The notes under the pieces: generated by a model | Told to the model about the DNA's origin: nothing | The model's database searches: none | What the model saw: the letters and a program-made list of their open reading frames with translations, nothing else | Shown: positions 13,893 through 61,960 of the stretch, piece after piece | Layout of the letters: each line of letters opens with the position of its first letter | How positions within the stretch are numbered: the first letter of the stretch is position 1 | Position numbers and translations under genes: made by a program | Origin: Bacillota bacterium | Lineage (GTDB): Bacteria; Bacillota; Clostridia; Christensenellales; Christensenellaceae | Direction: 5' to 3' | Assembly (NCBI GenBank): GCA_023393165.1 | Contig: JAEWMJ010000057.1 | Span: forward strand, 94,500 to 158,499 | DNA: 64,000 nt

Positions 13893-16800
13893 CTACGGCT
13901 CGCAGATTGTTGTAAGAAAACGTGTTACATATTCAGAAGATACCTGCGGCCAGTCAAACCCACAATGATGGAGTAATTCTGCGGTTTTGTCAGACCGGAC
14001 TTCAATATTTTGTCCCATGACATCTTGCCTGGAAATATCGTTAATAATACCTGATAGTTTTTTGCCTTCATTCTGCCGACTGATGGCGCGTATGGTCCGA
14101 TCAAAAACTTTCGTTGGAACAAACGCCGGCGCCGGCAAGATCTCTCGGGACCAAGCGATTAAATCTTTCATGAAGATCCTGTTAGGATTATATAAATGGT
14201 ATACAACAGGGCAAATTCCGCCCACTTGTGATAAAATCAGCATTGCTTTTGCGCAAGAGTCCACAGGGGTCAACTCCAGCAGCAGATCCTTTAACTTTTC
14301 CGGCAGAACCCCGATTTCAAATATGGATTTTAATCGGTTTGCAAAGGCATTGTTCTCCTTTGCCATCTGAAACTTTCCATCGATTGTACGGGCGGTCAGG
14401 TTTCCGGCTCTAAAGATCCGGGCGTCCAACCCCTCTTCACGGGCCTTGTGCACTATTCCTTCAGCAAAAAACTTGCTTTTCACATATTCGTTTGAACCGT
14501 ACTCCTGGCCGATGTAGTAACAGGTTTCGTCAAACACGAACGTCTTGGCGTCTTCCCGCACATACTTCCCGGATACGCTCATTGTGGAAACATGCAATAG
14601 TGGCTTGCTTTCCCTCAAACAAAATTCAACAATATATTTTGTTCCCAGAACATTGATTTCTTCAAATTTCTCGGGCATTCCATAATGGCTGGTGATCGCC
14701 GCGCAGTGAATCACGGTTTTAATATCAGCAGCGATTTCCGCACTTCTTCCGTCGGGCATTCCAAGATTGGGACTGCAAATTTCCCCGCTCACCGCCTGCA
14801 CATTTTTAAGAATCTTTTCCGCCGCGTCTTTCCCGAAGTAAAACACAAGGGAATCCTTCAATTTTTGCCGGGCGTTCTCGTCATTATCCGCTCTAATTAT
14901 ACAATAAACACGCGATTGATACAAGCCGACAAGCTCGGATAGAACATGCGCGCCTAAAAATCCGTTTGCGCCGGTCAGCAGCGTACAGCTCAGGTCCGCC
15001 GGCTGGCAATCCGCACTTCTGGGCGTCAATGGAATGCCTTTTTTAGAGGACGCATAAATATCATATTTAGAAGGCGCCGCTTGTTTTAAAGAATGTTTGC
15101 TGTCGATATGTTCGCAAATTGATTCAAGCGTCTGCATTTCGTAAAAATCCTGCGTCCCAATTTCAAATCCATATTTCCATATGGCGGCTTGCACCTGGAT
15201 CACCGCGAGGGAATCTCCGCCCAAATGGAAAAAGTTGTCCGCAGGGCCGACGCTTTGAACCTTTAAAACCTGCTTCCAGACTTTAGCCATTTTCTTTTGG
15301 GTATCGCTCGTCAACACCTTTTTCCGGACGGTATTCTTTCGGCTGCCGGTCTCTGTCCCGGGATTGGGCAGTGCTTTCCTGTCCAGCTTTCCGCCGGGAG
15401 TCATGGGGAAGCTTTCCAGCGAAATAAAATGCGAAGGGATCATATAAACCGGCAGGCGTTTTTTCAGGCTTTCCCTAAGCGCCGTCTCATCCACATCCCC
15501 ATTTTGGGTGAAATATGCGCAAAGATATTTGTTCTCTTCTTTTCCACAAGCCAAAACAACCGTTTTATCAACGCCTTTTATATCCAGTATTGCACTTTCA
15601 ATCTCTCCAAGTTCTATGCGTAGACCGCGGATTTTTACCTGAAAATCGCTGCGTCCCAGGCAAACGACTTCGCCGCTTGGCTGGTAGGCGCAGATGTCGC
15701 CCGAATTGTACATGATTCCCTCGGCAAACGGATTCCTCAGATATCGCTCCCGGGTCAGATCTTCCCGGTTAATGTACCCCCGAGAAACGCCTTTTCCCGC
15801 AATATACAGCAAACCCGGGCACCCAAGCGGAACAGGGATAAGGTCGTCGTCCAGTATATAGTACTGCAGATTGGCTGCAGCTTTCCCCACAGTGATATTC
15901 GACGTATGCGTCAAATCCTTAAAAGACGAATAAACGGTCGTTTCAGTAGGCCCGTATACGCTGACGATGCGCGCGCGGGAATATTTTTTAAGCTTCCTTA
16001 AAAGATCAGGCGGGAATGGCTCTCCTCCGTGAACGATCAGTTTTAGATGAATCAGATTTTCCCTGAAAGTTTTGTCACTCATCAATATTTGCATGCGCGA
16101 CGGTGTGGTCTGCAAAAAATTTGCTCCGCCCAACCGCATCGCCGGGACCAGAAGATGCGGCTGACGGCATTCGTCATCAGTGCACATGATTACGGCCGCG
16201 CCAAAAAACAATGAGATAAGGGAGTCCGAAACAAAAATATCAAACGAAATAGATGATATGGACGCAACTACCGTGTCTTCGGAATAAAATTTATTTTGTC
16301 CGATCATTTCATACAGATTCAGAAGGCCGGATACTGTAACCATCACCCCTTTGGGCCTGCCTGTCGATCCAGAGGTATAGATCACCAGTGCCAGATCGCC
16401 GGGCCCGCTTGCTATCACAGGCCGGTACTCACCCGCATTTTTATCCACAGTTCCTGAAAACAATATGGTCCCCTGAAAGCCGCACTTATCGGGATCGTCC
16501 GTAATCAGCACATCGGCTTTGCTGTTCTGAAGCATATAGGTTTTCCGTTCTTCAGGATAAAAAGGATCTACCGGCATATAAGCGGCGCCCGCCTTCAGCG
16601 TTCCCAGTATGGCGCACATCATATCCAAAGACCGGTTCACGCTGATTCCGACGATGCGGTTCCTTCCAACCCCAAGCTCTATTAATTTTTTTGCATAGGC
16701 TCCGGCCGCACGGTCGAGCTCCGAAAAAGTCATTCTCCGGCCTTTGCAGATCAGAGCGATTTTATCAGGATACCGGTCGGCCGCCCTCTCAAACAGGCGG

Positions 16801-19800
16801 ATCACTGGAATGCCTTCATCATATTCATAACCGGTCCGATTAAAATCCACAAGTATTTTCTTCCGTTCCGCAGGCGTCAGCAGGCAGATCTTTTTGATTT
16901 CAATTTCAGGATTGCGCAGCACCATCTTAATCAAATTTTTAAAATGCAGCGCAATAGCCTTCAGGGTGCTTCTTTTAAATAATTTCGTACAATACTCAAA
17001 TTCGCATTCCAGCGTCGCGCTTTTATCGTAAACTTCCAGTGTAATGTCAAATTTGGAAATAGGCTGGCTCAATCTGACTACCGTTGTTTTCAAATCTTTT
17101 AATTCCAAGGAGGCCAGATCGAAGGTATTGTAGCTCAGCATAGTGCCGAATACCGGGTTCCGGCTGGCGTCCTTTTCCAGTTTCAAATCGTTTACCATGA
17201 GTTCAAAAGGATAAGTCTGATTCTGGAACGCCGCCAAGCAACCTGCGCGGACCCTCTCCAGCATTTCGGTAAATTTTTCGTCGCCGTCAATCCGGGTTCG
17301 CATTGGGAGTGTGTTCACAAACATTCCTACAATATCCATAAGTTCATGCCGGTTGCGGACCGAAACCGGCGCGCCCACAATAATATCCTTCTGACCCGTA
17401 TACTTGGAAAGAACAACCGTATACAAACTTAATAGCAGCATAAACATTGTAACGCCCGAGCGCTGCGCAAACGTCCGGAGCTGTAAAGTCAGGTCCTTCG
17501 GGATGGAAAAGGAAAGTCTGTTACCTTCCATGCTTTGCACCGCTCCCCTTGGATAATCGGTATTCAGATTCAAGGTTGGCAGGTCGCCTCCCAAGGTGTC
17601 CATCCAGAATCTGCGCTGAAAGTCAACATGCCCGGACGCAAGGTGCTCTTCTTGCCAGACCGAATAATCCTTATAGCTGACCATATTGGATGGGATACTC
17701 TTTCCAGCGTACAGGCGGGATAGCTGCGATAAGACGGTCTCGACTGAAGTTCCGTCCGCAATAATGTGATGCATATCCAAAAACAGAATAAATTCATCCG
17801 CTTCCATCCGAAGCAGATTTGCGCGTAAAAGAGGCGGAGCCTTCAGATCAAACGGCCTGGCGAGCGAATTCAGTCTCTTTTGCATCTCGCTTTGGGCGCA
17901 GTCTTCCACATTCAGTATGATTTCGGCCCTCGGAACGATCCGCTGACGCAACTCGCCATTCTTCATTTCAAAACGGGTCCGGAACGACTCGTTTTTCGCA
18001 ACAAGCCTTGTTAGGGAGCGCTGAAGCGCCTGTATATCCAGGCTGCCTTTGATATAATAGGCTCCGGGCATATTATAGACCGTATTCTGTCCAAAAAACC
18101 CTCCGGATACAATGAAAACCTGTCTTTGAGCGGCGGATACCGGATAATCTTTTCTTCCCCGTACGCTTATAATTGGACGGCTATCGGTTTTTTTAGTTTC
18201 GCCGTCTATGAGCTTTGCATAATTTTCCAAAGTAGGATTTTCATACACTTTTTCCAGGGATACTTCCACCTGAAAACGTTTATATACCTCGGCCGATACC
18301 ATTACAATAGAGAGGGAATCTCCGCCTATATCAAAAAAGTTATCTTCTCTTCCAATCTTTTTAAGTTTCAGAACGTTTCCCCAAATTTCCGCCAGACCCT
18401 TCTCGGTTGCAGTAGAAAGCGAAGCGTTTTCATCCCTGTTGGCCTGCCGCTCTTCTTTATCAGGCTCAGGCAGCCCTTTTCTGTCCACCTTTCCGCTTAC
18501 GCCCAGGGGAAGGCTGTCCATCCAGATAAAATAGGATGGAACCATATACGCGGGCAGTTCTTTGGCCAGTTCACCCCTTAACTGGTTGACGTTTTTTCTG
18601 CGGGTTCCGCAGATATATGCGCACAGGTACTTTCTTCCGGTGTCGTCCTGCCTGTCCACCACTGCGCACGCGCTGATTCCGTCTATCTGCAGCAGTTTTG
18701 CTTCAATTTCACCTGGTTCGATACGGAATCCTCTGATTTTAACCTGCTGGTCCACCCTGCCGAGGTATTCGATCTCGCCCATCGGGAACCAGCGGGTCAT
18801 ATCTCCCGTTTTGTAAATCCTCCAGCCGGGTTTAAAAGGATCGGACACAAAAGACTCTGCCGTTAATTCAGGCCTGTCCAGATACCCTCTTGAGACGCCA
18901 TCCCCTCCGATATACAGTTCTCCGTGCACGCCGATGGGAACCGGGTTTTTATGCTTATCCAGAATATATGCGTATACACCGGGAAGCGGTTTTCCTATGT
19001 TGACCGTGTTGGAATCGGTCAGTTCCTTGTATGATGCGGCGATTGTAACTTCAGTCGGTCCATAAAAATTAAATATCCTGGCGGCAGTTTTTTCCTTGAT
19101 TTCGTTTAAAAGACGCACGGGAAGGACGTCCCCTCCCAGCATGATCTCTTTCAAGCTCTTTAGGCATTCGTCCGCGCCTTTACCGGACATAAAAAGCTGC
19201 ATTCTTGAAGGAGTCGTCATGATTTTATTGATCCTGGTCCTGATGATAAGACTGACCAGATTCTGCGGTATGTTGTGCTCGGTTTCTCCGGCCAGAACCA
19301 CGGTGCCTCCGTTCAGAAGCGTAGGAAATGTTTCCATAATAAACAGATCAAAAGAAACGGTCGCTGCGGACAGAACAATATTTCCGGGCGTAAAATCCAT
19401 TATTTCGGAAAGGGTATGCATAAAATGAACGATGGAATGATGCTCCACCATAACGCCCTTGGGCTTTCCGGTTGAACCTGACGTGTAGATGACATAGGCC
19501 AGATCGCGCAAACGATTGCCAGGCTGAATCGCTTCCCCGCATTCGGGCAGTGAGACAAGGATGTCCGCCGGTATCACTTCGCAGATATCGTCGCACTTTT
19601 CCGCAAGCTGCAAAGAGGCGATCACGCATTTGGCGCCGCTTTCTTTTAGTTCATACTGCACACGGTCGGCAGGGAAATCTGGATCGATGGGCAAAAACGC
19701 CGCTCCGGCCCGCAGGACCGCAAGTATGGATACGATGAGAGTATATTCCCTTGCGATCATAATGCCCGCGATGTCATCCCTGCCCAGCCCCTTGTTTATT

Positions 19801-21296
19801 AAAAAATACGCTGCTTTATTTACAAGCGCGTTTAATTGGCGGTAAGTCAATACGTCCGTTCCCGAAATCAGGGCGATTTCATCGGGCGTTTTGTTCATTT
19901 GCTGCTGAAAAAGCGCGTCCAGGCCCCGGTCGGCGGTGAAATCCGTCTTGTTGGCATTAAATTCGTACAGCACGCGTTTGAGTTCCTCGGGCGGCATAAT
20001 GTTCATTTCAAAAAGCTTTTTATATGGATGCGAAATAGCGTCCGTCAGAATGGTAAGGCAATGATCGTGGATGTACTCGATCTCTTTTATTGAGAAAAGA
20101 GGGACCTGATGATCATAGTCAACAATCAGCCTTCCCTCTCCCTCACGGTCGTTGATATGGATGTTGAGGGAGTTTACCTGGCTTCCGGAAAAATGCCACC
20201 TGCCTTCATAGGTAAAGTTGTTCGTGTTTTTTTCAAACTGTACGTTCTGATAGGAAAGCGTAATATCATAAAGTGAATCCAGGCCCTTATGCTTTTTCCT
20301 GAGATCGGAAAGCAGCAGTTCGTACGGATATTTTTGGTGCTTTAAAATACGGAACCACTCGCCCGAAACCATTTTTACAAATTCATCGAAGGGCGTATCG
20401 TCCAGTAATTTAATGCGTATGGGCACAGTGCTGACAAACATGCCCACCGTGTTCCTTTCGTCCCTGGACCGGTTGAATACCGGTACGCCGATGACAATAT
20501 CGTCCTTGCCCAATATCCGGTTGATATAGATGCATAGTACCGATAAATACAGGGCGAAGATGGACACGTTTTGTTTTTCACAGTATGCCCTCATATGGTC
20601 GGCAACGGTTTTTGAAATGATACATGCTTTCCTGCGCGCCCGGGTGCTTACATAATTAGTTTTCTTTTGCTTTAAAACGGTTGGTTCCGGAATATCCGAA
20701 AATATTTCGTTCAGACAGAGCTTGTCCGTAAGAAAACGTTTGGAATTCAGGTATTCCTGTTCCCGCCGGATGTAACTGGTATAAGAATCCCCCTGAAATT
20801 CAGCCGGCTCACCCCCCGATAAATAAATATCGTAGTATTCCATTACCTGATTGCTGAACATGACAAGGGACCATGCGTCCGATATGATATGATGCACTTT
20901 TGCGTACCAGACAAATTCGTCATTGCTGATCCTGACGATGGCTATATAAAAAAGTTCCCGGTCCAGCAGGGGCAGATATGACTGCGATTGCATGCTGTCC
21001 CACTCGTAAAGCCCCTGCAATCCCTTTGCGCTGAAATCGAGATAATCGTATTGGCTGTAGGCAAACGGACTTACATACTGAAAAGGTTCGCCGTTGATTT
21101 CCGTGATGCGGATACGCATCGCTTCGTTATTTTTAATAAAAAGGTTAATGGATTTTACAATCAGATCAAGATTGAGCGGTCCTTTGATTTTTAATGTGCC
21201 TGCATTGTTCCACATGCTTGTGCCCGGATGCAGCTTCTCTGTATACCATATTCTTTGTTGAGGATGTGTCAAAGGATAAAATTTATTTTCAATCAT
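13893..21296 (-). CDS. Bimodular non-ribosomal peptide synthetase with terminal thioester reductase (C-A-T-C-A-T-R)
   Basis: A single 2467-aa ORF. The domain motifs are listed in the sub-features below. No thioesterase domain is present. Confidence 0.95.
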   Translation of the reverse strand: MIENKFYPLTHPQQRIWYTEKLHPGTSMWNNAGTLKIKGPLNLDLIVKSINLFIKNNEAMRIRITEINGEPFQYVSPFAYSQYDYLDFSAKGLQGLYEWDSMQSQSYLPLLDRELFYIAIVRISNDEFVWYAKVHHIISDAWSLVMFSNQVMEYYDIYLSGGEPAEFQGDSYTSYIRREQEYLNSKRFLTDKLCLNEIFSDIPEPTVLKQKKTNYVSTRARRKACIISKTVADHMRAYCEKQNVSIFALYLSVLCIYINRILGKDDIVIGVPVFNRSRDERNTVGMFVSTVPIRIKLLDDTPFDEFVKMVSGEWFRILKHQKYPYELLLSDLRKKHKGLDSLYDITLSYQNVQFEKNTNNFTYEGRWHFSGSQVNSLNIHINDREGEGRLIVDYDHQVPLFSIKEIEYIHDHCLTILTDAISHPYKKLFEMNIMPPEELKRVLYEFNANKTDFTADRGLDALFQQQMNKTPDEIALISGTDVLTYRQLNALVNKAAYFLINKGLGRDDIAGIMIAREYTLIVSILAVLRAGAAFLPIDPDFPADRVQYELKESGAKCVIASLQLAEKCDDICEVIPADILVSLPECGEAIQPGNRLRDLAYVIYTSGSTGKPKGVMVEHHSIVHFMHTLSEIMDFTPGNIVLSAATVSFDLFIMETFPTLLNGGTVVLAGETEHNIPQNLVSLIIRTRINKIMTTPSRMQLFMSGKGADECLKSLKEIMLGGDVLPVRLLNEIKEKTAARIFNFYGPTEVTIAASYKELTDSNTVNIGKPLPGVYAYILDKHKNPVPIGVHGELYIGGDGVSRGYLDRPELTAESFVSDPFKPGWRIYKTGDMTRWFPMGEIEYLGRVDQQVKIRGFRIEPGEIEAKLLQIDGISACAVVDRQDDTGRKYLCAYICGTRRKNVNQLRGELAKELPAYMVPSYFIWMDSLPLGVSGKVDRKGLPEPDKEERQANRDENASLSTATEKGLAEIWGNVLKLKKIGREDNFFDIGGDSLSIVMVSAEVYKRFQVEVSLEKVYENPTLENYAKLIDGETKKTDSRPIISVRGRKDYPVSAAQRQVFIVSGGFFGQNTVYNMPGAYYIKGSLDIQALQRSLTRLVAKNESFRTRFEMKNGELRQRIVPRAEIILNVEDCAQSEMQKRLNSLARPFDLKAPPLLRANLLRMEADEFILFLDMHHIIADGTSVETVLSQLSRLYAGKSIPSNMVSYKDYSVWQEEHLASGHVDFQRRFWMDTLGGDLPTLNLNTDYPRGAVQSMEGNRLSFSIPKDLTLQLRTFAQRSGVTMFMLLLSLYTVVLSKYTGQKDIIVGAPVSVRNRHELMDIVGMFVNTLPMRTRIDGDEKFTEMLERVRAGCLAAFQNQTYPFELMVNDLKLEKDASRNPVFGTMLSYNTFDLASLELKDLKTTVVRLSQPISKFDITLEVYDKSATLECEFEYCTKLFKRSTLKAIALHFKNLIKMVLRNPEIEIKKICLLTPAERKKILVDFNRTGYEYDEGIPVIRLFERAADRYPDKIALICKGRRMTFSELDRAAGAYAKKLIELGVGRNRIVGISVNRSLDMMCAILGTLKAGAAYMPVDPFYPEERKTYMLQNSKADVLITDDPDKCGFQGTILFSGTVDKNAGEYRPVIASGPGDLALVIYTSGSTGRPKGVMVTVSGLLNLYEMIGQNKFYSEDTVVASISSISFDIFVSDSLISLFFGAAVIMCTDDECRQPHLLVPAMRLGGANFLQTTPSRMQILMSDKTFRENLIHLKLIVHGGEPFPPDLLRKLKKYSRARIVSVYGPTETTVYSSFKDLTHTSNITVGKAAANLQYYILDDDLIPVPLGCPGLLYIAGKGVSRGYINREDLTRERYLRNPFAEGIMYNSGDICAYQPSGEVVCLGRSDFQVKIRGLRIELGEIESAILDIKGVDKTVVLACGKEENKYLCAYFTQNGDVDETALRESLKKRLPVYMIPSHFISLESFPMTPGGKLDRKALPNPGTETGSRKNTVRKKVLTSDTQKKMAKVWKQVLKVQSVGPADNFFHLGGDSLAVIQVQAAIWKYGFEIGTQDFYEMQTLESICEHIDSKHSLKQAAPSKYDIYASSKKGIPLTPRSADCQPADLSCTLLTGANGFLGAHVLSELVGLYQSRVYCIIRADNDENARQKLKDSLVFYFGKDAAEKILKNVQAVSGEICSPNLGMPDGRSAEIAADIKTVIHCAAITSHYGMPEKFEEINVLGTKYIVEFCLRESKPLLHVSTMSVSGKYVREDAKTFVFDETCYYIGQEYGSNEYVKSKFFAEGIVHKAREEGLDARIFRAGNLTARTIDGKFQMAKENNAFANRLKSIFEIGVLPEKLKDLLLELTPVDSCAKAMLILSQVGGICPVVYHLYNPNRIFMKDLIAWSREILPAPAFVPTKVFDRTIRAISRQNEGKKLSGIINDISRQDVMGQNIEVRSDKTAELLHHCGFDWPQVSSEYVTRFLTTICEP
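13896..14990 (-). other. NRPS terminal reductase (SDR-type) domain
   Basis: NAD(P)-binding TGANGFLGAHV (aa 2108) and catalytic YVKSK (aa 2271). Confidence 0.85.
15102..15305 (-). other. NRPS carrier (thiolation) domain 2
   Basis: FFHLGGDSL, with Ser at aa 2029. Confidence 0.85.
15363..16814 (-). other. NRPS adenylation domain 2
   Basis: LVIYTSGSTGRPKG (aa 1637), FDIFVSD, SVYGPTE, GLLYIAGKGVSRGY, YNSGD, GRSDFQVKIRGLRIELGEIE, GKLDRK (aa 1969). Confidence 0.9.
16872..18155 (-). other. NRPS condensation domain 2
   Basis: MHHIIADGTS at aa 1175-1184. Confidence 0.85.
18201..18413 (-). other. NRPS carrier (thiolation) domain 1
   Basis: FFDIGGDSL, with the phosphopantetheine Ser at aa 994. Confidence 0.85.
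18462..19934 (-). other. NRPS adenylation domain 1
   Basis: LTYRQLN, YVIYTSGSTGKPKG (aa 601), FDLFIME, NFYGPTE, GELYIGGDGVSRGY, YKTGD, GRVDQQVKIRGFRIEPGEIE, GKVDRK (aa 935). Confidence 0.9.
19992..21287 (-). other. NRPS condensation domain 1 (leading/starter position)
   Basis: HHIISDAWS at aa 135-143. Boundaries are approximate. Confidence 0.8.
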
Positions 21297-37247: not shown

Positions 37248-39271
37248 TTATCTCTTCTCTTCCAGCAATTTTTTGAATTTTTCCGCGCCGAATGCGGGCG
37301 GCAGGCAGGTCTGCCCCCTGCACACATACGCCGTGGGTCTTTCGTCCTGCATCTTGTATCCGGAAAAATAATCCCGCAAATTTTCTGGAATTTTTTCATC
37401 CGCCGCTATCACAACAACGTCCGCGTCCCTCCCCCTGGCAAGTTCAATCATCCCCTGCAATTCTTCCTTTGTTTTACCAACGAGAACTATTTTTATTTTC
37501 TCCCGGCTGTCCTCCAGCATCGCGTGCATCATATGGGCATACGCGCCCGGACTCCGGGATATATCATCCGCAAATGCGCGGAATATATCCACAGCGCGTT
37601 CCCTCATTTCAAGATCCCCCGTCAGACCGGACAAGCGCAATAAATTTCCAGCCTCAACGGAATTTGCCGAAGGCGTCGCTCCATCGTAAACCGTTTTGGT
37701 GCGGGCGATCAGCATCTCGGAACTCGTACCCGAATAAAACAGGCCGCCGGTTTCATTGTCCCAAAAATCTTCCATAAATACTTCGTTCATCCGCACCGCG
37801 GCTGAGAGTACGTCCGCGTCAAACGCAGCGGCATACAGTTCAAGCAATCCCCATATGAGATACGCCCAGTCGTCCGCATGCGCGGGATTTTTCGCCTGTC
37901 CTTCGCGGTAAGAGGATTTCAAAGCTTTTCCTTCCATCAGCTTATTCTGGACGAACTGCCAGCATTCGGCTGCGGTCTGGATAAAACTGTAATTCTTTAA
38001 TACTCTTCCGGCAAACGCGAAGGCCGCCATGGCCAGTCCGTTCCAGCAAGTAAGGATTTTGTCGTCCAGAAACGGATGGACCCGTTTTTCACGGGCGTCA
38101 AACAATATTTTTCGCTCTTTTTCAAAATCCGGCATTTCTTCCAGGCCTAGCGGATTGCCTATCAGATTGGGGATGTTTTTACCTTCAAAATTACCCCCAT
38201 CCGTTATATCGAAATTGCCGCAAAAATTCTCCGCAGCATCTCCCAGAAGTTCGCCTGCTTCGGACCGGTCCCAAAGGTAAAACTTGCCTTCCACGCCCTC
38301 CGAATCCGCGTCCTCCGCGGTATAAAACCCGCCTTCGGGTGAGCGCATCATCCGCTCCAGATACGAAAGGGTGCTTTGGGCGGTATTCTTGAGGCTCTCT
38401 CTGCCCGTCCGGGCATAGGCCCCGGTATAGGTGTATGCCAGCAATGCGTTGTCGTACAGCATTTTTTCAAAATGCGGAACCAGCCATCTTTGGTCGGTAG
38501 AGTAGCGGCAGAAACCGTACCCGATATGGTCGTGGATGCCGCCCCTGTCCATGGCGTCCAGCGTCTTGAGCGCCATTTGAAGCGCCTGCGGCTTATCGTG
38601 CGCCTCCGCGTATTCCATCAGAAACAGCAGCAGATGCGGAGAAGGGAACTTGGGCGCATAGGAAAATCCGCCGTAATTTGTGTCAAAACTTCTCTTCAGT
38701 TCCCCGTATGCGACATGCGGCAGGTTTCTGTCCTCGTCTTTCTTTTGAGCAGTCCTGCTGTTCAGATATTTTAATACCTCCTGCGAAGCTTCTTCCAGCT
38801 TGCCCCGGTCCGAATCCCAGATTTTACGAATCTGTAAAATGAGGCTTTGAAACTGCGCGTTTGTAAAATAAGTTCCGGTAAAAAAAGGGCGCCGCTCCGC
38901 ATCCATGAATATGGAAAGCGGCCATCCGCCGCTGCCCGTCATGGCCTGGCATACGTCCATATACACATGGTCCACATCCGGGCGTTCCTCCCGGTCCACC
39001 TTGATGCTCACAAAATTGTCGTTCAGCATCCGTGCCGCCGCCTCGTCCTCGAACGTTTCACGTTCCATCACGTGGCACCAATGACAAGTGCGTCATAGTA
39101 GACAAGTCAGCTATACCCAATAGATAGGAAAACAGGCTTATCCTCAAGCCTTGCTTTCTCAAACGCTTCTTCTCCCCATGGGAACCAGTCCACCGGATTA
39201 TACGCATGCTGCAACAGATAAGGAGATTTCTCATTGATTAATCTATTGGGTATTTTCTTTTGATTGTCCAC
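37248..39271 (-). pseudogene. yyaL: YyaL-like thioredoxin-domain (DUF255) / six-hairpin glycosidase-like protein, interrupted by a 20-nt insertion
   Basis: The 5' piece (39107..39271/39289) ends ...[10 protein letters not shown] then TGA. The 3' piece (37248..39071) starts at VMERETFEDE. The expected TCHWCH active-site codons (39072-39089) lie between them in the 3' frame, behind a stop. The frames differ by 2 nt. Confidence 0.8.
39090..39109. other. 20-nt extra segment / candidate recombination junction inside yyaL
   Basis: The + strand reads atGACAAGTgcgtcatagtaGACAAGTcagctata. A 7-nt direct repeat GACAAGT sits at 39083-39089 and 39101-39107. By hand count, GC is 68/120 on the host side (38941-39060) and 78/183 on the other side (39107-39289). 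Confidence 0.6.
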
Positions 39272-39330
39272 TTGACCACCCCCTTTCAAAAAACAGAGAT
39301 TATAATATTCTAATAATTTTTTTGATCATC

Positions 39331-40845
39331 CTATTTGAAATTGATCTTTATTCTAATATCGTCTCCGTTCTTATACCATATTATACTATCCAGAATAGTA
39401 CGATACAGATCATTTCGAGCTGCATTATCCGTAGTAATAGTAATGTTTTCAAAAAAATCGGATAATGATTTTAATCTCTCCGTATTGGATAGTGGCTGAT
39501 CATTATCGGATAGTTTTTTTAGCGTATAAATTTCATCTGAAATGTTATTTATTTCAAGCTCTCTCTTCCTTTTTCTCTCAAGCCATTCTTCGCGACAATA
39601 ATCACCCATTTCATATGCATCATTTACTAAAGTCAAAGCCTTTTTTTGCTTGGATAAAAGAAGCTCTTTTTCTTTTATGAGGACTTCCAGCATATTTAAA
39701 TCGTTATCTTCTTGTTCAACAATAGTCAGAAAACTATCTTTATACTTCGCAATTTCGGCAAAAACCTTTTCTTCTATAACGGATACAACAATACCTTCAT
39801 TATGACATTTTGTACCGTAGGGATCAATATACCAGCACGGTTTCATATGATACTTATTATCTCTAAAGTAAAAAGTATGGGTATGACCGCATCTACCACA
39901 CTTGATTAAACCAGAAAACATAAAAGTTTGGTGGCGCGCTTTTGTCGCTATCTGCTTCCTATCATTTATAAATTGAATAATCTTGTCATGCTCTTCCTGA
40001 GTTTTTACAGCTTCATGGCAATTTTTAACTACTACCCATTCGCTTCTGGGTAAAACTTTATAATCTTTTGCATTGGGCCGTTTATTTTTATGAGCATCTC
40101 CTTGAGTCTTGTTGCTTATTATTTTTCCAAGATGCGTTTCGTCGAATAAAAGTCTTTGGATTGAAAATCCGTTCCAGTATTTAGATTTAACTGTTAATAT
40201 GCCTTTTTGATTAAGACTATTCGCAATTTTTTGTGGGGGTACCCCTTGCAGAGCTTGATTAATCATACTCCTATAAACCTTGTATCTCTCATCATGAACA
40301 ACAAGTCCTTTAGGATTGAACTTATCTTTATATTGTTGATAGACATAAGGAAATGGTGGGATACCATTTGTCCATTGACCGCGCCTAGAACCGATTTTCT
40401 TGCCCTGTCGCAACCTCTTAGTTATCATTTTATATTCCTGACGTGCAAAAAAGCCCTTTAAATCTGCATAAGTATCATCAATATCATCATTGAGATCATA
40501 GATTTTATCGGGCGTTATTATGAGAGTATTTGACCTTTGAAACGCCTTTTTTATTCGATCTTGTTCTCCAAGGTCACCTCTCCCCAACCTGTCATATTCT
40601 ACAACGCATACTGCATCATATACCCCTTCTTCGACTTCCTTTAATAGTTTACTGATTTGGGGACGCATATCTATACTATCGGAAGTACCCACTTCCATAT
40701 ATTCTACGTATTTGAAATTGTTTTTTTGACAAAGGTCAATAAGAACTATTCGATGCTTTTCTAAATCTTCCATGCTTTCCGCACGGGATTTTCTGATGTA
40801 GATCGCAACATAACGGATAATGTATTTTTTGTTTTCAATATCCAA
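39331..40845 (-). CDS. Large serine recombinase
   Basis: Resolvase catalytic N-terminus YVAIYIRKSRAES and EYDRLGRG, a recombinase domain, a zinc ribbon CGRCGHTHTF...C..C, and a C-terminal coiled coil. TTG start 8 nt after GGGAGG. Confidence 0.9.
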   Translation of the reverse strand: MDIENKKYIIRYVAIYIRKSRAESMEDLEKHRIVLIDLCQKNNFKYVEYMEVGTSDSIDMRPQISKLLKEVEEGVYDAVCVVEYDRLGRGDLGEQDRIKKAFQRSNTLIITPDKIYDLNDDIDDTYADLKGFFARQEYKMITKRLRQGKKIGSRRGQWTNGIPPFPYVYQQYKDKFNPKGLVVHDERYKVYRSMINQALQGVPPQKIANSLNQKGILTVKSKYWNGFSIQRLLFDETHLGKIISNKTQGDAHKNKRPNAKDYKVLPRSEWVVVKNCHEAVKTQEEHDKIIQFINDRKQIATKARHQTFMFSGLIKCGRCGHTHTFYFRDNKYHMKPCWYIDPYGTKCHNEGIVVSVIEEKVFAEIAKYKDSFLTIVEQEDNDLNMLEVLIKEKELLLSKQKKALTLVNDAYEMGDYCREEWLERKRKRELEINNISDEIYTLKKLSDNDQPLSNTERLKSLSDFFENITITTDNAARNDLYRTILDSIIWYKNGDDIRIKINFK

Positions 40846-40924: not shown

Positions 40925-41083
40925 CTATGGTATAACCACTTTTTTATCTTGGACTTGAAAAACTATTTTATCTGATTTGCTACTTCCATGAAGACGGCAT
41001 AACATTTTCTGAAAATTCTTTAAGGCTTCGTTTGATGGTGTGTTTGAAATAACAACTATTTTTAATTTGATGTTTTCACACAT
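40925..41083 (-). CDS. Small hypothetical protein (52 aa), possibly TnpW/orf5-like accessory protein
   Basis: I prefer the start at ATG 41083, preceded by AGGAGGAAAACTT. Its position directly upstream of the recombinase supports an accessory role. The family assignment is only a guess. Confidence 0.4.
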   Translation of the reverse strand: MCENIKLKIVVISNTPSNEALKNFQKMLCRLHGSSKSDKIVFQVQDKKVVIP

Positions 41084-41331: not shown

Positions 41332-41579
41332 GATACCGGACAACAGCGGGCCGCTGCCTCATAGGAATCACACCTCCCCCCATTCTGATGGCGGGCCGTC
41401 CCTTGACATCATGTTAGCCAGACGGAAGTATCATTATCCGGTTCGTGAGATCATCGCCTGCAGGCTTGCCACAGCCTGCCTGAGGCACAATATTTGTCGC
41501 TCTCCCCATTACTGGAGGTCCTGGCGTATCTGCCGCATAGCTTGTCCTTTCGGCTCACGCACCGAAGGTATCCGGTATC
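41332..41579 (-). ncRNA. Candidate structured non-coding RNA or cis element (~250 nt, GC-rich island in AT-rich DNA)
   Basis: Stops occur in all minus-strand frames. Closing 8-bp helix 41332-41339/41572-41579. An 11-bp bulged hairpin 41456-41486. Hairpin 41376-41395. Long-range 6-bp helix 41444-41449/41554-41559. 5-bp hairpin 41344-41356. Strand was chosen from flanking gene orientation and a GAAA loop, and is not secure. Confidence 0.4.
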
Positions 41580-41649: not shown

Positions 41650-41892
41650 TTAAAATATTTTGAAACTTATTATTTTTGTTATTAACTTCGTCTGCAGTTG
41701 TCGCCGCATTTCTTCGTCTACAAAGTTATAGGTATTGCCTGATTCATCAAAAAGTTTTTTAATCGATAGTTTTAATATATAGCTATCATAATGGTCAACA
41801 ATTTTATTAATTGCAGCTACGTTACCTTTTACCGCTAACAAAATTGTTGGAAATGGAATCCTTTGGATTTTCTTCTGAGCAGTACTGTTCAC
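41650..41892 (-). CDS. Tn916 Orf8-like helix-turn-helix protein
   Basis: AAINKIVDHYDSYILKLS...FVDEEMRRQLQTKLITKII resembles my recollection of Tn916 Orf8 (…YEPYIAKLS…FVDETIRRRLETKLITKIL). Confidence 0.7.
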   Translation of the reverse strand: MNSTAQKKIQRIPFPTILLAVKGNVAAINKIVDHYDSYILKLSIKKLFDESGNTYNFVDEEMRRQLQTKLITKIISFKIF

Positions 41893-42229
41893 TGTTAGCC
41901 TCCAGATACTTTTTAAGTAATTTTAGCGCACTAGACCTCATATAGCTTACAGTCCAATGAACGAGATGAAGAAAACTGGATATTTCTTTGTCTGTCATGT
42001 TCAGCCAATAACTTAATATAACGATATCCCGTTTTATATCAGGTAGAGTATTGATAGCCTCGAGCAAAGTCTCGTTTTCTATTTCAAATACAAAACCAGC
42101 GGCAGCCAACTGGCCTCCTAGATTATATTTATCGATTGAATATAGTTGATTCATTTCATTTGGTGTCAGTTCACTAAATGCTTTTTCATGCTCGAGTAAA
42201 TATGATTCATGTTGCCGAATATCTTTCAT
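41822..42229 (-). CDS. Tn916 Orf7-like sigma-70 region-4 protein (N-terminus probably extends to ~42307-42313)
   Basis: LLEAINTLPDIKRDIVILSYWLNMTDKEISSFLHLVHWTVSYMRSSALKLLKKYLE is a sigma region-4 HTH. The frame is open upstream to a TGA at 42314-42316. Confidence 0.75.
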   Translation of the reverse strand: MKDIRQHESYLLEHEKAFSELTPNEMNQLYSIDKYNLGGQLAAAGFVFEIENETLLEAINTLPDIKRDIVILSYWLNMTDKEISSFLHLVHWTVSYMRSSALKLLKKYLEANSEQYCSEENPKDSISNNFVSGKR

Positions 42230-59768: not shown

Positions 59769-61625
59769 TTAAATCTTATGTTCAGTTCGTGCAATAATAG
59801 TATCCTGAACTTCCTCGGAAAGTTCTGTAAAGAACGCACTATACCCAGCTACACGCACAACAAGCCCCCTATGCTCTTGAGGATTAGCCTTTGCTGCTTT
59901 TAACGTTTCGCCATCCACAATATTTATTTGAATTTGCATTCCTTTTAAGGTGATATAGGTTTGGACAAGTTGTGCAAATTTTTTCATCCCCTCGGGTGTA
60001 CGTACCGTCGAAGGATTAATCTTAAAATTATACAGCAATCCATTCGGCACAAAGTAATGATCCAGTTTTACAACAGATTTAAAGGCTGCGGTTGGTCCAT
60101 TTAAATCAGTCCCCATGCTAGGTGAAATCCCGTCAGACAGAGGTTCGTGTGCATGACGTCCATCCGGCGTAGCGCCTACAGCGTGACCGAGAGGAATATA
60201 TCCTGATACCGGCGCGTATGATGCAGTAAAATGTCCACCTCTATAGGTCTCGTAATGATATAATGCTTCCAAAAGTACATCCGTAGCATATCTCGCCATA
60301 TAGTCTACTTCATCAATATCATTTCCGTATTTATCCACACGGTTGATTAAATACTGCCGCATAGCTTCGTTATCTTTGAAATCGTTATCCAGCGCATCAA
60401 TCAATTCACTCATTGAATAACGTTTATCTTCAAATACAACTTTTTTTACCGCGTAAAGCATATTGCCTAAACTTGCGGGACCAGTCATAACCGGTCCAGT
60501 CCAATTATACTTGGCCCCACCTGATGTTACATCTTTTCCAACCTCCATACAATCATCCAACAGTATGGACATTAACGGAATCGGCATACGTGTTTCGTGT
60601 ATATGGTCAAGTGTATTATTCCAGGTCACTATAAGGCGCGCTGAGTGTTCTACCTGTTTTTCATATGCATCTAATACATCTTCGAATGTTTTAAATTTCC
60701 GCGGGTCCCCTGTCTTTGGGCCAACTTGCTTACCTGTAATACGGCAGACGCCATCATTGAGCGCAAGCTCAAACATCTTGCAAATATTAGTAAAACCGCC
60801 ATTGCCACGTCCCCAGGCATTGAGGGGCGTTCCTTCAACACAACCTTCAGGGGCATAATTACGCGCATCATGAAGAGAAACACCAAGAGTTAATAAAGCA
60901 GGAATATATACTTCGTCGTTTAGAATTTGCGGTAAGCCTCCACCCTCAGCAACAATTTCACATACCTTTGATAAAAATTCGTAGGGAGTGCCAATATGCA
61001 TACGCACAGCAAAATTTGGCTGAGAGAATCGTATATGTTTTTGACACTCTAAAAAACGATATGATAGATCATTTGTTGCATCCAATCCTTCTGGGGTTAA
61101 TCCACCTACGCAGACGTTTTGCCCCATAGGAAAGCCAGAATGTATCTCTGCATCTGCAGCCCGATATAATTTTGTTGGCTCACAAAATTTTATCCAGAAG
61201 GTTTCAAGCAGCCCTTGACACTCCGCCTTACTCTTCCCTTGCTCTAATATTTCACTTTCATAAAAAGTATATAACCATTGATCTATACGACCCGGAGAAA
61301 TTGATACACCGTTATCCATAACCTGAAGTAAAAGCTGAATAAACCATACAGTCTGGAGTGCTTGCTGTAAATTCTCAGCCGGATGCTCGGGAACTCGCCG
61401 ACAGGTTTTTTCTATTTCTAATAACTCCATTTTACGTACAGGATCTTGTTCGTTTTCAGCCATGCGTTTCGCTTCATTGGCATAACGATTAGCATAAGCC
61501 ACAACAGCATCAACAGTAATAATTACGGCTTCGTAAAATTCTCTTTTCTTAGGACTGTCATGTTGCCAAAGCTTAATAGATTCCAGTTTTTCTATTGCTT
61601 GTTTTTTTATGTGCCCTAAAGGTAA
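59769..61625 (-). pseudogene. Glycyl radical enzyme (PFL2/dehydratase-lyase type), 5'-truncated
   Basis: Glycyl motif VVRVAGYSAFF and Cys loop APEGCVEG. Family-like sequence (LGHIKKQAIEKL...KREFYEAVIITVDAVVAYANRYA) continues upstream of the GTG at 61502 with no start codon, then runs into antisense deoC. About 200 N-terminal residues expected for this family are missing. Confidence 0.75.
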
Positions 61626-61960
61626 TATTGGAAAACTATTTTTTAACTGACGAAGAGATAAAAATTGGATGTCAATTAATAGAAAAAGCTGGCGCTGACT
61701 TTGTTAAAACATCAACTGGTTATGCAGGAGGCGGGGCAAAAATCCATGATTTACAGATCATGCGAAGTGCAGTTTCCGCACATGTTCAGGTCAAGGCTGC
61801 TGGCGGGGTGCGTACATTAGATACTGCTTTGGCAGTAATCGCAGTAGGTGGAACGCGTATGGGCAGTACTGGAACAGCGGCAATAATTGATGAAGCTGTT
61901 CAACGTGAAAAGATTGGTACACTATGTATTCCTACGTACGTTGCAGATGATGCCATCTAA
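61613..61960 (+). pseudogene. deoC: Deoxyribose-phosphate aldolase, C-terminal fragment only
   Basis: LKVILENYFLTDEEIKIGCQLIEKAGADFVKTSTGY (Schiff-base Lys) and VKAAGGVRT...GGTRMGTS. The N-terminal ~100 aa of the family are absent. Confidence 0.75.

Follow-up and report, generated by a model that had tools for sequence, protein, structure and literature searches.

Why should a yyaL-like gene be interrupted by 20 nucleotides immediately beside a serine recombinase gene? In the window, the whole 64,000-nt stretch of Bacillota DNA analysed here, the minus strand carries a 5' open reading frame that ends ...SIGYS-TGA (stop codon at 39109-39107). The 20-nt segment TGACTTGTCTACTATGACGC (39109-39090) precedes the T-C-H-W-C-H codons (39089-39072) and a long ORF starting at GTG 39071 (VMERE...). 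Deleting 39090-39109 in silico yields a single yyaL ORF of 673 aa. A preliminary description had read the gene as split by this segment, and each feature that it listed was recovered at its place: the two plus-strand copies of GACAAGT, 18 nt apart (39083-39089 and 39101-39107), the GC shift, with counts of 68/120 at 38941-39060 and 78/183 at 39107-39289, and the short distance from the recombinase stop codon (39331-39333) to the start of the 5' fragment, 41 nt for TTG 39289 and 59 nt for GTG 39271. Once repaired, the ORF shares 79% identity with the intact protein P0002 and, from Thr55 on, ~99% with the intact P0241. PF03190 was found on the called products of both fragments, the solved homologs are PDB 7TKV (E 5e-120) and 3IRA, and an N-terminal thioredoxin-like domain with a CxxC motif followed by a C-terminal alpha/alpha-barrel region places the protein in the YyaL / SSP411 (Thioredox_DsbH) family.

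An assembly artefact at the junction was ruled out, since the same 20 nt and flanking junction are 100% identical in an independent Logan assembly from another sample (SRR13243524). Neither is the interruption due to chance, because a stop and a spacer after Ser54, beside a homologous recombinase, recur at 28 distinct attR loci in many Bacillota. The comparisons below indicate that the split yyaL is very probably attR, the right-hand junction of a large conjugative element integrated by the serine recombinase encoded at 39331-40845.

The uninterrupted yyaL of a close relative, a comparison suggested in the preliminary description, was found in a genome of the same species (L138), which carries the attB allele. 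The window is 98.8% identical to this genome over 12 kb; identity is lost in the middle of the CxxC codons, beyond which the window is foreign, and synteny with the empty-site genomes ends exactly at the yyaL junction. The host 3' part of yyaL, from the right half of the attachment core to the stop codon (37248-39078, minus strand), is itself 98.8% identical to the intact allele, from which it differs at 14 codons synonymously and at 2 non-synonymously, and its reading frame is intact, without a usable start ahead of the CxxC motif. The Thr55 and Cys56 codons read ACT TGT in the window and ACC TGC in the native allele, and the two sequences are identical from CAT TGG on; two mismatches in 6 nt are hardly expected from 1.2% divergence (P about 0.002). 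As these two codons differ from the same-species intact allele, they are element DNA, and the empty-site comparison brackets the host/element boundary between 39084 and about 39061. The crossover had previously been placed at the 20-nt segment, but host identity starts inside the CxxC core.

The 5' fragment, hereafter the decoy, is a 54-codon copy of the YyaL N-terminus (39110-39271, minus strand; GTG start, ending ...FLSIGYS), recognised by identity, co-divergence and dN/dS. It is preceded by a Shine-Dalgarno region, GAAAGGGGGTGG (39276-39287, minus strand), and a strong Shine-Dalgarno sequence 5-8 nt ahead of the start is kept in the 20 non-Paenibacillus decoys examined; at L036 and L039 the alignment is ambiguous. 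Identity of the decoy is 70% with the native 5' end of the host, and 86-91% with the decoys found beside related recombinases in other species. Consistently, decoy distances follow those of the recombinase (rho 0.48) and not those of the host yyaL part (rho -0.04). Over all decoys dN/dS is 0.08, and in the clade of the window 0.084 (the within-clade value for the recombinase was discarded as saturated and unreliable), and its per-site constraints match those of genuine YyaL N-termini (rho 0.87). On these sequence comparisons, the 5' fragment is element DNA with its own ribosome-binding site and start codon, and with a stop just outside attP.

Junctions of the same anatomy were identified in Bacillota genomes and viral contigs (28 attR, 14 attL and 6 attP-like), and dozens of related elements, phage contigs among them, share this layout; recombinase homologs down to about 35% identity adjoin yyaL cores. 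The decoy is carried at 28 of the 31 related attR junctions. Relatives devoid of it (L026, L076 and the phage group L058-L067) show that the decoy is not needed for recombination. A stop directly after Ser54, followed by a spacer, is likewise present at 28/31 attR junctions, so that the loss of frame, which the preliminary description had put as "now out of frame", is a conserved character and no accident. The spacers measure 15, 17, 19, 20, 21, 22, 24 or 37-44 nt, lengths that fall in all three frames, and two in-frame stops are often found ahead of Thr55. A literature search returned no prior description of yyaL in connection with serine recombinases, attB or intervening elements.

All attL, attR and attP sites of the family contain the same 20-nt core, ACTTGTCAT-TG-GTGCCACGT (39070-39089 in the window, minus strand), which encodes T55-C56-H57-W58-C59-H60-V61. 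This core is an imperfect palindrome common to attB and attP, with 6-7/10 self-complementary positions; in the window its left half (39089-39081) is element DNA and its right half is host DNA. The predicted crossover dinucleotide is the TG of the Trp58 codon (39079-39080, minus strand), which is the symmetry centre of attP and lies within the empty-site bracket, and strand exchange would take place at this central TG. A crossover at the Val61 codon, derived from attL/attR comparisons, was abandoned in favour of the central TG on the evidence of the mirror symmetry and of the empty-site comparison. The prediction of the dinucleotide and of the protein-DNA contacts is based on symmetry together with one published structure, that of a distant integrase. 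The recombinase would have integrated the element into the most conserved piece of yyaL, a 20-nt palindrome encoding T-C-H-W-C-H-V, at a native core predicted to read ...GGCTATTCCACCTGCCATTGGTGCCACGTGATGG... (attB). Integration would silence yyaL, as two frames contain stops and the CxxC motif has no start ahead of it, and precise excision would restore the gene.

What, then, are the 20 nt? The segment (39090-39109, minus strand) consists of the decoy stop codon (39109-39107) and of the outer P-type half-site of the element's attP, kept at attR; it is neither an insertion nor a footprint, although it had been counted as extra DNA. In three relatives with both junctions (L032, L033 and L124), spacer and P' arm mirror each other around the 20-nt core with zero offset, matching at 17/26, 17/26 and 15/26 positions with runs of 10-12 nt located 14-23 nt from the centre; for 17/26 at zero offset, P is about 2e-5 to 5e-4. 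The core motif of the segment, TTGTCTACTAT, is conserved inside the recombinase clade, and spacers vary by clade. Mirroring the window spacer predicts an attL of the form TGGTGYCAYGT-N4-CATAGTAGA. This motif was then found at two attL junctions on metagenome contigs (L136 and L137), with typical conjugative-element left-end content behind it, and had no match in viral contigs. For the element in the window, the attL would read GGCTATTCC-ACCTGCCAT-TG-GTG...N4-CATAGTAGAC. A pseudo-palindromic attP, in which the attR arm mirrors the attL arm, is therefore seen both in the relatives with two junctions and through the L136/L137 attL. The shift of the 5-bp motif between B-type and P-type arms is clear only for the right arms of the L035 clade.

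The position of the segment agrees with the Listeria A118/LI integrase model, in which the attP half-site is 25 bp long and the zinc-ribbon motif occupies bp 16-24 (PMC3783163); the outer motif lies here 14-23 nt from the centre, and the segment would be the P-arm binding place of the recombinase zinc-ribbon domain. As in the large serine integrases A118/LI, phiC31 and Bxb1, the system comprises a three-domain recombinase, a pseudo-palindromic attP of ~50 bp, a shorter attB and hybrid attL/attR. It differs from them in two respects: (i) the stretch in which attP and attB are identical is, at 20 nt, unusually long, since this core is a coding palindrome, and (ii) a copy of the target gene's 5' end, presumably translated, abuts attP. 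An attP that works and a surrogate 5' end free of interruption would be mutually exclusive here, since native codons 50-54 cannot be matched by the outer 15 bp of the P half-site. This would explain why elements with a serine integrase do not just bring along the 5' end of their target in frame.

The recombinase (504 aa, minus strand) has the architecture of a large serine recombinase, with a resolvase catalytic domain followed C-terminally by Recombinase and zinc-ribbon domains (PF00239 Resolvase, residues 13-158, E 1.6e-17; PF07508 Recombinase, 1.1e-11; PF13408 Zn_ribbon_recom, 3.7e-07). The YIRKSR serine nucleophile motif and four cysteines (C316, C319, C337 and C347) are invariant in the alignment. 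Upstream, on the same strand, lies a conserved 52-aa ORF (40925-41083), called as a gene in L001, L006 and L010 and sharing 79% DNA identity with L006 over 58 nt; that it encodes a directionality factor is speculative. It is followed by a regulatory pair (41650-42229, minus strand) that Pfam assigns to a Sigma70_r4_2 protein (41822-42229) and an HTH_16 protein (41650-41892) and that is also present upstream of the recombinase in L006. The element interior (42230-64000, minus strand), delimited by position and annotated with Pfam, contains sugar-catabolism, ABC-transporter and glycyl-radical-enzyme cargo. Past the window, the same ENA contig (L133, L139; ERZ27268806 k141_24251) continues with NlpC/P60, VirB4-like, PrgI, TrbL, VirD4, DUF3801, relaxase and NikA-like genes, the conjugation genes beginning at window-equivalent ~64 kb. 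This transfer module is co-oriented (PF03432 relaxase, VirD4/TraG, AAA_10 VirB4-like, PrgI, TrbL_2, NlpC/P60), with no core site in between, and the VirD4 homologs are named "CD1115 family" by NCBI. A relaxase, a coupling protein and a type IV secretion ATPase are thus encoded on the contig of the recombinase, as expected for an integrative conjugative element. From their position and the absence of an internal core site, the recombinase and conjugation modules probably form one element.

Firmicutes conjugative elements that use a large serine recombinase include Tn5397, with TndX, and elements with Tn1549/CTn-type transfer modules. In the Tn5397/Tn1549 type the order is relaxase, VirD4, VirB4, NlpC/P60, cargo, small sigma/HTH regulators and a recombinase at the element end. 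The element in the window has the same gene order, with a terminal recombinase; in contrast to this type, it targets the yyaL CxxC core and carries ~21 kb of metabolic cargo and the decoy ORF.

The distal boundary of the element lies outside the window. A search beyond 64 kb for a second yyaL 5' end had been suggested. The window, and then the contig walked with window-encoded and cluster-member proteins to ~73 kb and on to window-equivalent ~83 kb, contained none, and neither a second core nor a matching attL in the 44 kb from 39.1 kb on. Neither an excised circle nor a repaired allele was encountered in the same sample. The element would therefore measure at least 44 kb, with its left end beyond window-equivalent ~83 kb, and it may be larger, composite or no longer excisable. 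The missing attL also agrees with an immobilised remnant, that is, a true attR whose attL has been lost or which now bounds a composite of islands, so that excision no longer occurs and yyaL is permanently dead in the lineage. Tandem accretion and scars are common at the yyaL locus (L032, L034, L043, L052, L135, L138), and a large block of ordinary metabolic genes separates the recombinase from the conjugation genes. However, no damage is seen in the recombinase, in the decoy, in the attR half-sites or in the host 3' part, the transfer module is complete and identical copies occur in separate samples. We consider immobilisation unlikely, although of some weight, and keep attR of a conjugative element as the preferred interpretation.

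Precise excision recalls skin in sigK, SPbeta in spsM and gin in gerE, where a large serine recombinase splits a conserved gene (PMC4191935, PMC5595907). The element shares with these systems its class of recombinase and the way in which it splits a gene, precise excision would likewise reconstitute the gene, the interrupted gene is kept intact and the hosts are mostly spore-forming Bacillota, all of which would suit an intervening element that leaves the chromosome of a terminal cell type so that yyaL is rebuilt. This is nevertheless improbable: yyaL is not a known sporulation gene, a literature search found no link between yyaL and sporulation, nothing points to developmental control, and the family includes ordinary conjugative elements, large phages and a non-sporulating host, Pectinatus. 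In addition, skin, SPbeta and gin carry no copy of the target N-terminus as far as their literature shows.

A conjugative element could also repair its target. SXT in prfC and the elements that target tRNA genes, which use tyrosine recombinases, carry an attP that duplicates the gene end, and this copy rebuilds a working gene. Here too the element carries the displaced part of its target with expression signals. If it supplied promoter and 5' end to rebuild yyaL, with the junction at the 20 nt, this copy would merely be out of frame. Such a role would fit the fragment's own Shine-Dalgarno sequence and start, its perfectly conserved YyaL N-terminal sequence, the in-frame fusion of decoy and yyaL in L041 and the restored yyaL genes next to attL scars in L135 and L138. 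However, L041 is the single exception; elsewhere the copy ends in a stop and a P half-site separates it from the rest of the gene, the 3' frame often contains stops as well, and the crossover is inside the core and not at the 20 nt. Because of the stop and the spacer, with spacer lengths in all three frames, yyaL is not rebuilt by the element-borne 5' end, and in the window the stop after Ser54 and the 20 nt break the frame. A rebuilding function is accordingly quite improbable. Of the attachment-site interpretation given in the preliminary description, the integrative element targeting yyaL, its own 5' end and the att junction stand; the crossover site, the "extra" 20 nt and the "now out of frame" do not.

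Recoding would give the same product by another route, ribosomes bypassing, frameshifting over or reading through the 20 nt to make full-length YyaL from decoy and host part. In its favour, the stop comes immediately after the final sense codon, GGG-TAT-NNN-TGA-C is similar to the prfB shift site, and purifying selection acts on both flanks. We nonetheless regard recoding as very improbable: in the window, where stops occupy two frames, one shift by +1 or -1 runs into stops, the spacer lengths obey no frame rule, no take-off and landing codons match, and Thr55 is often preceded by two in-frame stops. That the C-terminal part is translated separately, from a start in the spacer, was also rejected, as an in-frame ATG is present only in L018, L023, L036 and L040, about the chance fraction because the ATG belongs to the half-site motif, and is absent from the window. 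Lastly, the alternative originally offered, in which a native yyaL lost its function through 20 nt inserted locally or left as a transposon footprint and the composition shift is coincidental, can draw on the GACAAGT copies, which resemble a small duplication, but is refuted, as the 5' fragment is foreign (70% against 98.8% identity for the rest of the locus relative to the same-species allele) and common to the elements of other species, and the spacer is conserved in the recombinase clade and mirrors P'.

If the split gene is the attR of a conjugative element, the role of the decoy has to be explained. Its most likely role would be that of a candidate YyaL N-terminal module acting in trans with the host fragment or serving as a repair template. 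We tentatively propose, as a possibility that we would not yet favour, that mobile elements of a broad family, which comprises conjugative elements, small islands and large phages, code for a functional N-terminal micro-protein of the very protein whose gene is destroyed by integration, always directly upstream of the orphaned host fragment, and that this peptide acts on or with YyaL. If true, the host fragments might be complemented, stabilised or poisoned by the decoy peptide, or short gene conversion from the decoy might allow yyaL to be repaired, to which the scars in L138 and L135 point; no such means by which an element limits the cost of its own insertion would have been described before. 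That the decoy is kept "fresh" by conversion from the host gene was rejected: a conversion tract exists in L138, but the window decoy is only 70% identical to the native sequence and evolves under the within-clade dN/dS given above. A function as directionality factor is disfavoured: in position and orientation the decoy goes with attP and not with the gene of the recombinase (L071, L124), and site by site it is constrained just as real YyaL is. Inspection by eye of distant recombinase relatives that target other genes revealed nothing obvious in the way of similar target-gene mimics. Selection on the decoy at the protein level is nevertheless strong throughout elements with recombinases as far apart as 43% identity.

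The yyaL system provides a natural family of serine integrases that is large and whose target can be clearly read: the coding palindrome of 20 nt that most yyaL genes of Bacillota contain. All four sites, attB, attP, attL and attR, can be deduced from sequence, which is of use for integrase engineering and island annotation. It also accounts for a recurrent annotation puzzle, the 54-aa "Thioredox_DsbH" mini-gene that is found beside an N-terminally truncated yyaL.

In the window, yyaL (minus strand; Thioredox_DsbH/YyaL family) is broken near its CxxC codons. A 54-codon ORF, hereafter the decoy, runs from a GTG at 39271 to Ser54 at 39110 and ends at a TGA (39109-39107); the T-C-H-W-C-H codons (39089-39072) lie 17 bases past this stop on the same strand, and the remainder of the reading frame continues from them down to 37248. 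In silico removal of 39090-39109 yields a single ORF of 673 aa. The GC counts at the junction, the two GACAAGT copies (39083-39089 and 39101-39107) and the distance from the 5' fragment to the recombinase stop, all reported in the preliminary description, were reproduced on re-measurement. As an independent Logan assembly contains the same junction base for base, the junction is real DNA. The 5' frame meets a stop immediately past Ser54, the 3' frame has a second stop immediately before the CGC-ACT preceding the CxxC codons, and no start codon is present between the latter stop and Thr55, which argues that yyaL would be off as long as the element stays integrated. Recoding to full-length YyaL was ruled out: gap lengths in the family obey no frame rule, being spread over all three frames, and take-off codons with matching landing codons are absent. 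The host 3' part differs from the intact allele by 14 synonymous and 2 non-synonymous differences and has not decayed, a pattern consistent with recent integration, with ongoing selection or with both.

The preliminary description had proposed a comparison with an uninterrupted yyaL from a close relative. Such an allele, P0241, shares a 90%-identity cluster with the 3' fragment of the window; it is an intact 665-aa YyaL encoded on contig L138, from a genome of the same species, and this contig is 98.8% identical to the window across 12 kb. Synteny with intact-yyaL genomes is strong 3' of yyaL and ends exactly at the junction, where the native allele reads GGC TAT TCC / ACC TGC CAT TGG TGC CAC GTG ATG and the window GGG TAT AGC (20 nt) ACT TGT CAT TGG TGC CAC GTG ATG. 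Of the 16 codons that differ, only codons 55 and 56, both changed at the wobble position, are neighbours (P about 5e-4, or 0.002 counted by nucleotide), and past CAT TGG the two sequences are identical save for scattered SNPs, the earliest at codon 64. Host DNA thus starts inside the CxxC codons and not at the boundary of the 20-nt segment. The 54-codon fragment shares just 70% identity with the native 5' end, but 86-91% with its counterparts beside related recombinases in other species; at those loci, identity to the window is 70-75% for the recombinase genes and 68-71% for the host 3' parts. These comparisons indicate that the fragment and the 20 nt are element DNA. A native gene interrupted by a local insertion or footprint can therefore be discarded, its 5' fragment being foreign (70% against 98.8% for the locus), and the other initial proposal, an integrative element carrying its own yyaL 5' end, is retained.

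The large serine recombinase (504 aa; Resolvase, Recombinase and Zn_ribbon_recom domains) is encoded upstream of the broken gene, in a module that also carries, all on the strand of yyaL, a conserved 52-aa ORF upstream of the recombinase, an HTH_16 protein and a Sigma70_r4_2 protein. The module is AT-rich (GC about 0.35) and extends to about 42.8 kb. Inside it, in a GC-rich, structured-looking stretch lying between the HTH_16 gene and the 52-aa ORF, 41359-41437 (minus strand) matches the pemK RNA motif (Rfam RF02913; 59.4 bits, gathering score 34.8) and is followed by no pemK toxin gene. The next 21 kb or so are given over to sugar catabolism, ABC transport and glycyl-radical enzymes. At 59769-61502 (minus) and 61595-61960 (plus) are found a glycyl-radical enzyme and, beside it, a short DeoC-like fragment (called in L133); the enzyme's alignment to the PFL-like profile (647 positions) starts at position 211, so that it appears N-terminally truncated, and both are possibly pseudogenes in the element cargo. 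Past the window, the same ENA contig encodes NlpC/P60, a VirB4-like ATPase, PrgI, TrbL_2, a VirD4 coupling protein, DUF3801, a relaxase and a NikA-like protein, all co-oriented; we infer that these conjugation genes and the recombinase module belong to one conjugative element, at least 44 kb long, with the recombinase at its right end. Its own attL (the opposite end) was not found in a search up to window-equivalent 83 kb. The element is similar to those Firmicute conjugative elements that use a serine recombinase. Defence-type genes travel with yyaL-targeting elements: DruA (Druantia) and a 1137-aa FtsK/SpoIIIE protein lie past the relaxase of the window's element (L139, 1-4176), and LmuB_C (Lamassu) and a Gp49/HTH toxin-antitoxin pair lie upstream of the recombinase in a second species (L003/L010, 270-3325). 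The host part of the window contains a 2467-aa ORF (13893-21296, minus strand).

The T-C-H-W-C-H-V codons (ACN TGY CAY TGG TGY CAY GT) form a 20-nt imperfect palindrome, the core, whose centre is the Trp codon's TG. For elements that offer both junctions or an attP-like site, the spacer separating Ser54 from the core is the reverse complement, at zero offset, of the P' arm right of the core: 17/26 positions match at L032 (10-nt run) and L124 (12-nt run), 15/26 at L033 and 11/26 overall at L035, where the same motif is present, with 6.5-8 matches expected by chance (P about 2e-5 to 5e-4 for 17/26). The block of matches, 14-23 nt from the centre, coincides with the zinc-ribbon contact of the Listeria integrase, which touches attP at bp 16-24 of the 25-bp half-site and attB at 11-19 (PMC3783163), contacts in the present case being predicted from symmetry and from that distant integrase. 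The 10-bp half-core and about 15 nt of spacer add up to 25 bp, so the decoy stop codon falls just outside attP. For a predictive test, the window spacer was mirrored to give TGGTGYCAYGT-N4-CATAGTAGA and metagenome contigs were scanned once with this motif. Two contigs were returned, and in each the motif falls at an attL junction built just as predicted: a host-type 5' fragment of yyaL continues as far as ...SIGYA-TCHWCHV and passes, with no spacer, into CCGC and CATAGTAGAC. The DNA behind encodes topoisomerase III, an ArdC/YodL protein and a sigma-70 r4 protein, resembling the left end of Firmicute conjugative elements. Taken together, the mirror symmetry and the recovery of the predicted attL motif indicate that the 20-nt segment is the outer P-type half-site of attP, kept at attR. 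Crossover is predicted at 39080-39079; the limits set for it by the empty-site comparison are 39084 and about 39061. In the P half-site, the outer 15 bp would stand where codons 50-54 belong and would have to differ from them, so that the element's 5' copy could not be in frame; were this half-site native-like, attP would resemble attL and attR would resemble attB.

A scan of species-representative genomes with the recombinase alignment gave 42 loci. Homologs beside yyaL, with identity down to about 35%, occur in Clostridia, Negativicutes, Paenibacillus, Bacillus and others, and viral contigs provide additional members. Counted over distinct loci, the junctions comprised 28 attR with decoy, stop and spacer, two attR without decoy (L026, L076), one attR fused in frame (L041), 14 attL (host 5' yyaL unbroken through GYS-TCHWCH, then foreign DNA and an early stop) and six attP-like sites (decoy, spacer, core, P'). 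Large phage contigs have a decoy-less attP (L058-L067; IMG/VR, 96-158 kb): at ~11569 a yyaL-type core and a TAGAAC-type P' arm directly follow the recombinase, which is 40% identical and represents a decoy-less branch of the same targeting family. Spacers measured 20 nt in 15 cases and 19 nt in 7 (range 15 to 44 nt), and are kept within a recombinase clade but differ between clades. Tandem accretion, with several yyaL 5' fragments or att cores per locus, was seen at L032, L034, L043 and L052. At L032 (1275, 4440, 11772), the last junction has a spacer whose mirror image is the P' arm at the middle one, which argues that one element entered the attR of an earlier, different element; occupied yyaL sites are still targets.

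The yyaL junction itself is ordinary mobile-element biology, with a recombinase and att-site logic standard for large serine integrases; the interesting part is the conserved decoy. Its frame is open in 22/22 copies examined, and a strong Shine-Dalgarno and a start codon are evident in 20 of these, two Paenibacillus loci aligning ambiguously. Decoy dN/dS is 0.08 (dS about 1.3), compared to 0.13 for the adjoining functional host segment, and 0.084 (dS 0.88) within the window's own clade, which shares the element-specific start GTG-GAC-AAT. Distances between decoys correlate with those between recombinases (rho 0.48, p about 1e-14), but show no correlation with those of the host part (rho -0.04). 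Per-site variability follows that of 117 genuine YyaL N-termini (rho 0.87), from whose consensus the decoy differs at two of 45 positions, and its position and orientation go with attP rather than with the recombinase gene (L071, L124). The element-borne copy is no decaying relic. As relatives without it exist, it is not needed for recombination. Codons 49-51, TCT ATT GGG (39125-39117, minus strand), are synonymously invariant in 20/22 decoys, whereas host genes mostly use TCC ATC GGN and dS elsewhere in the decoy is about 1.3; this hints at an additional DNA-level constraint beyond the canonical 25-bp half-site. Our best guess from these sequences is that the peptide would supply the YyaL N-terminal module, acting in trans with orphaned host fragments or keeping the gene repairable; it might also be a directionality factor. 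Splitting of yyaL with potential reconstitution recalls skin, SPbeta and gin. SXT at prfC and tRNA-targeting elements carry a copy of the displaced gene end; the yyaL element does so too, but its copy leaves the gene unrebuilt. No paper connecting yyaL with serine recombinases, or describing an ORF of this target-mimicking kind at attP, was found in a literature search.

Working yyaL genes stand beside attL scars at L041, L135 and L138. In L138 (5077-5300 and 10001-10200), an attL-type scar composed of the native promoter, codons 1-57, a foreign right half-core TAGTGACAAAT and a P' arm with AAATGCAAGT lies 4.7 kb upstream of the intact yyaL, with an LHH toxin/SUKH immunity island between. The two 5' copies are 100% identical over the 85 nt beside the core and about 75% over the remainder, and the identical stretch is a gene-conversion tract. 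In L135 (8793-8987 and 10001-12007), a 64-aa attL-type fragment with a duplicated native promoter lies 1 kb upstream of the intact gene, a reversed short-chain dehydrogenase gene separating the two. L041 (7081 and 11726; Bacillus sp. NTK071) has the only in-frame fusion of an element-side 5' end, SIGYS-V-CHWCHVMERE, and a normal attL 4.5 kb upstream of the recombinase; as its right junction is attB-like, this element is probably locked in.
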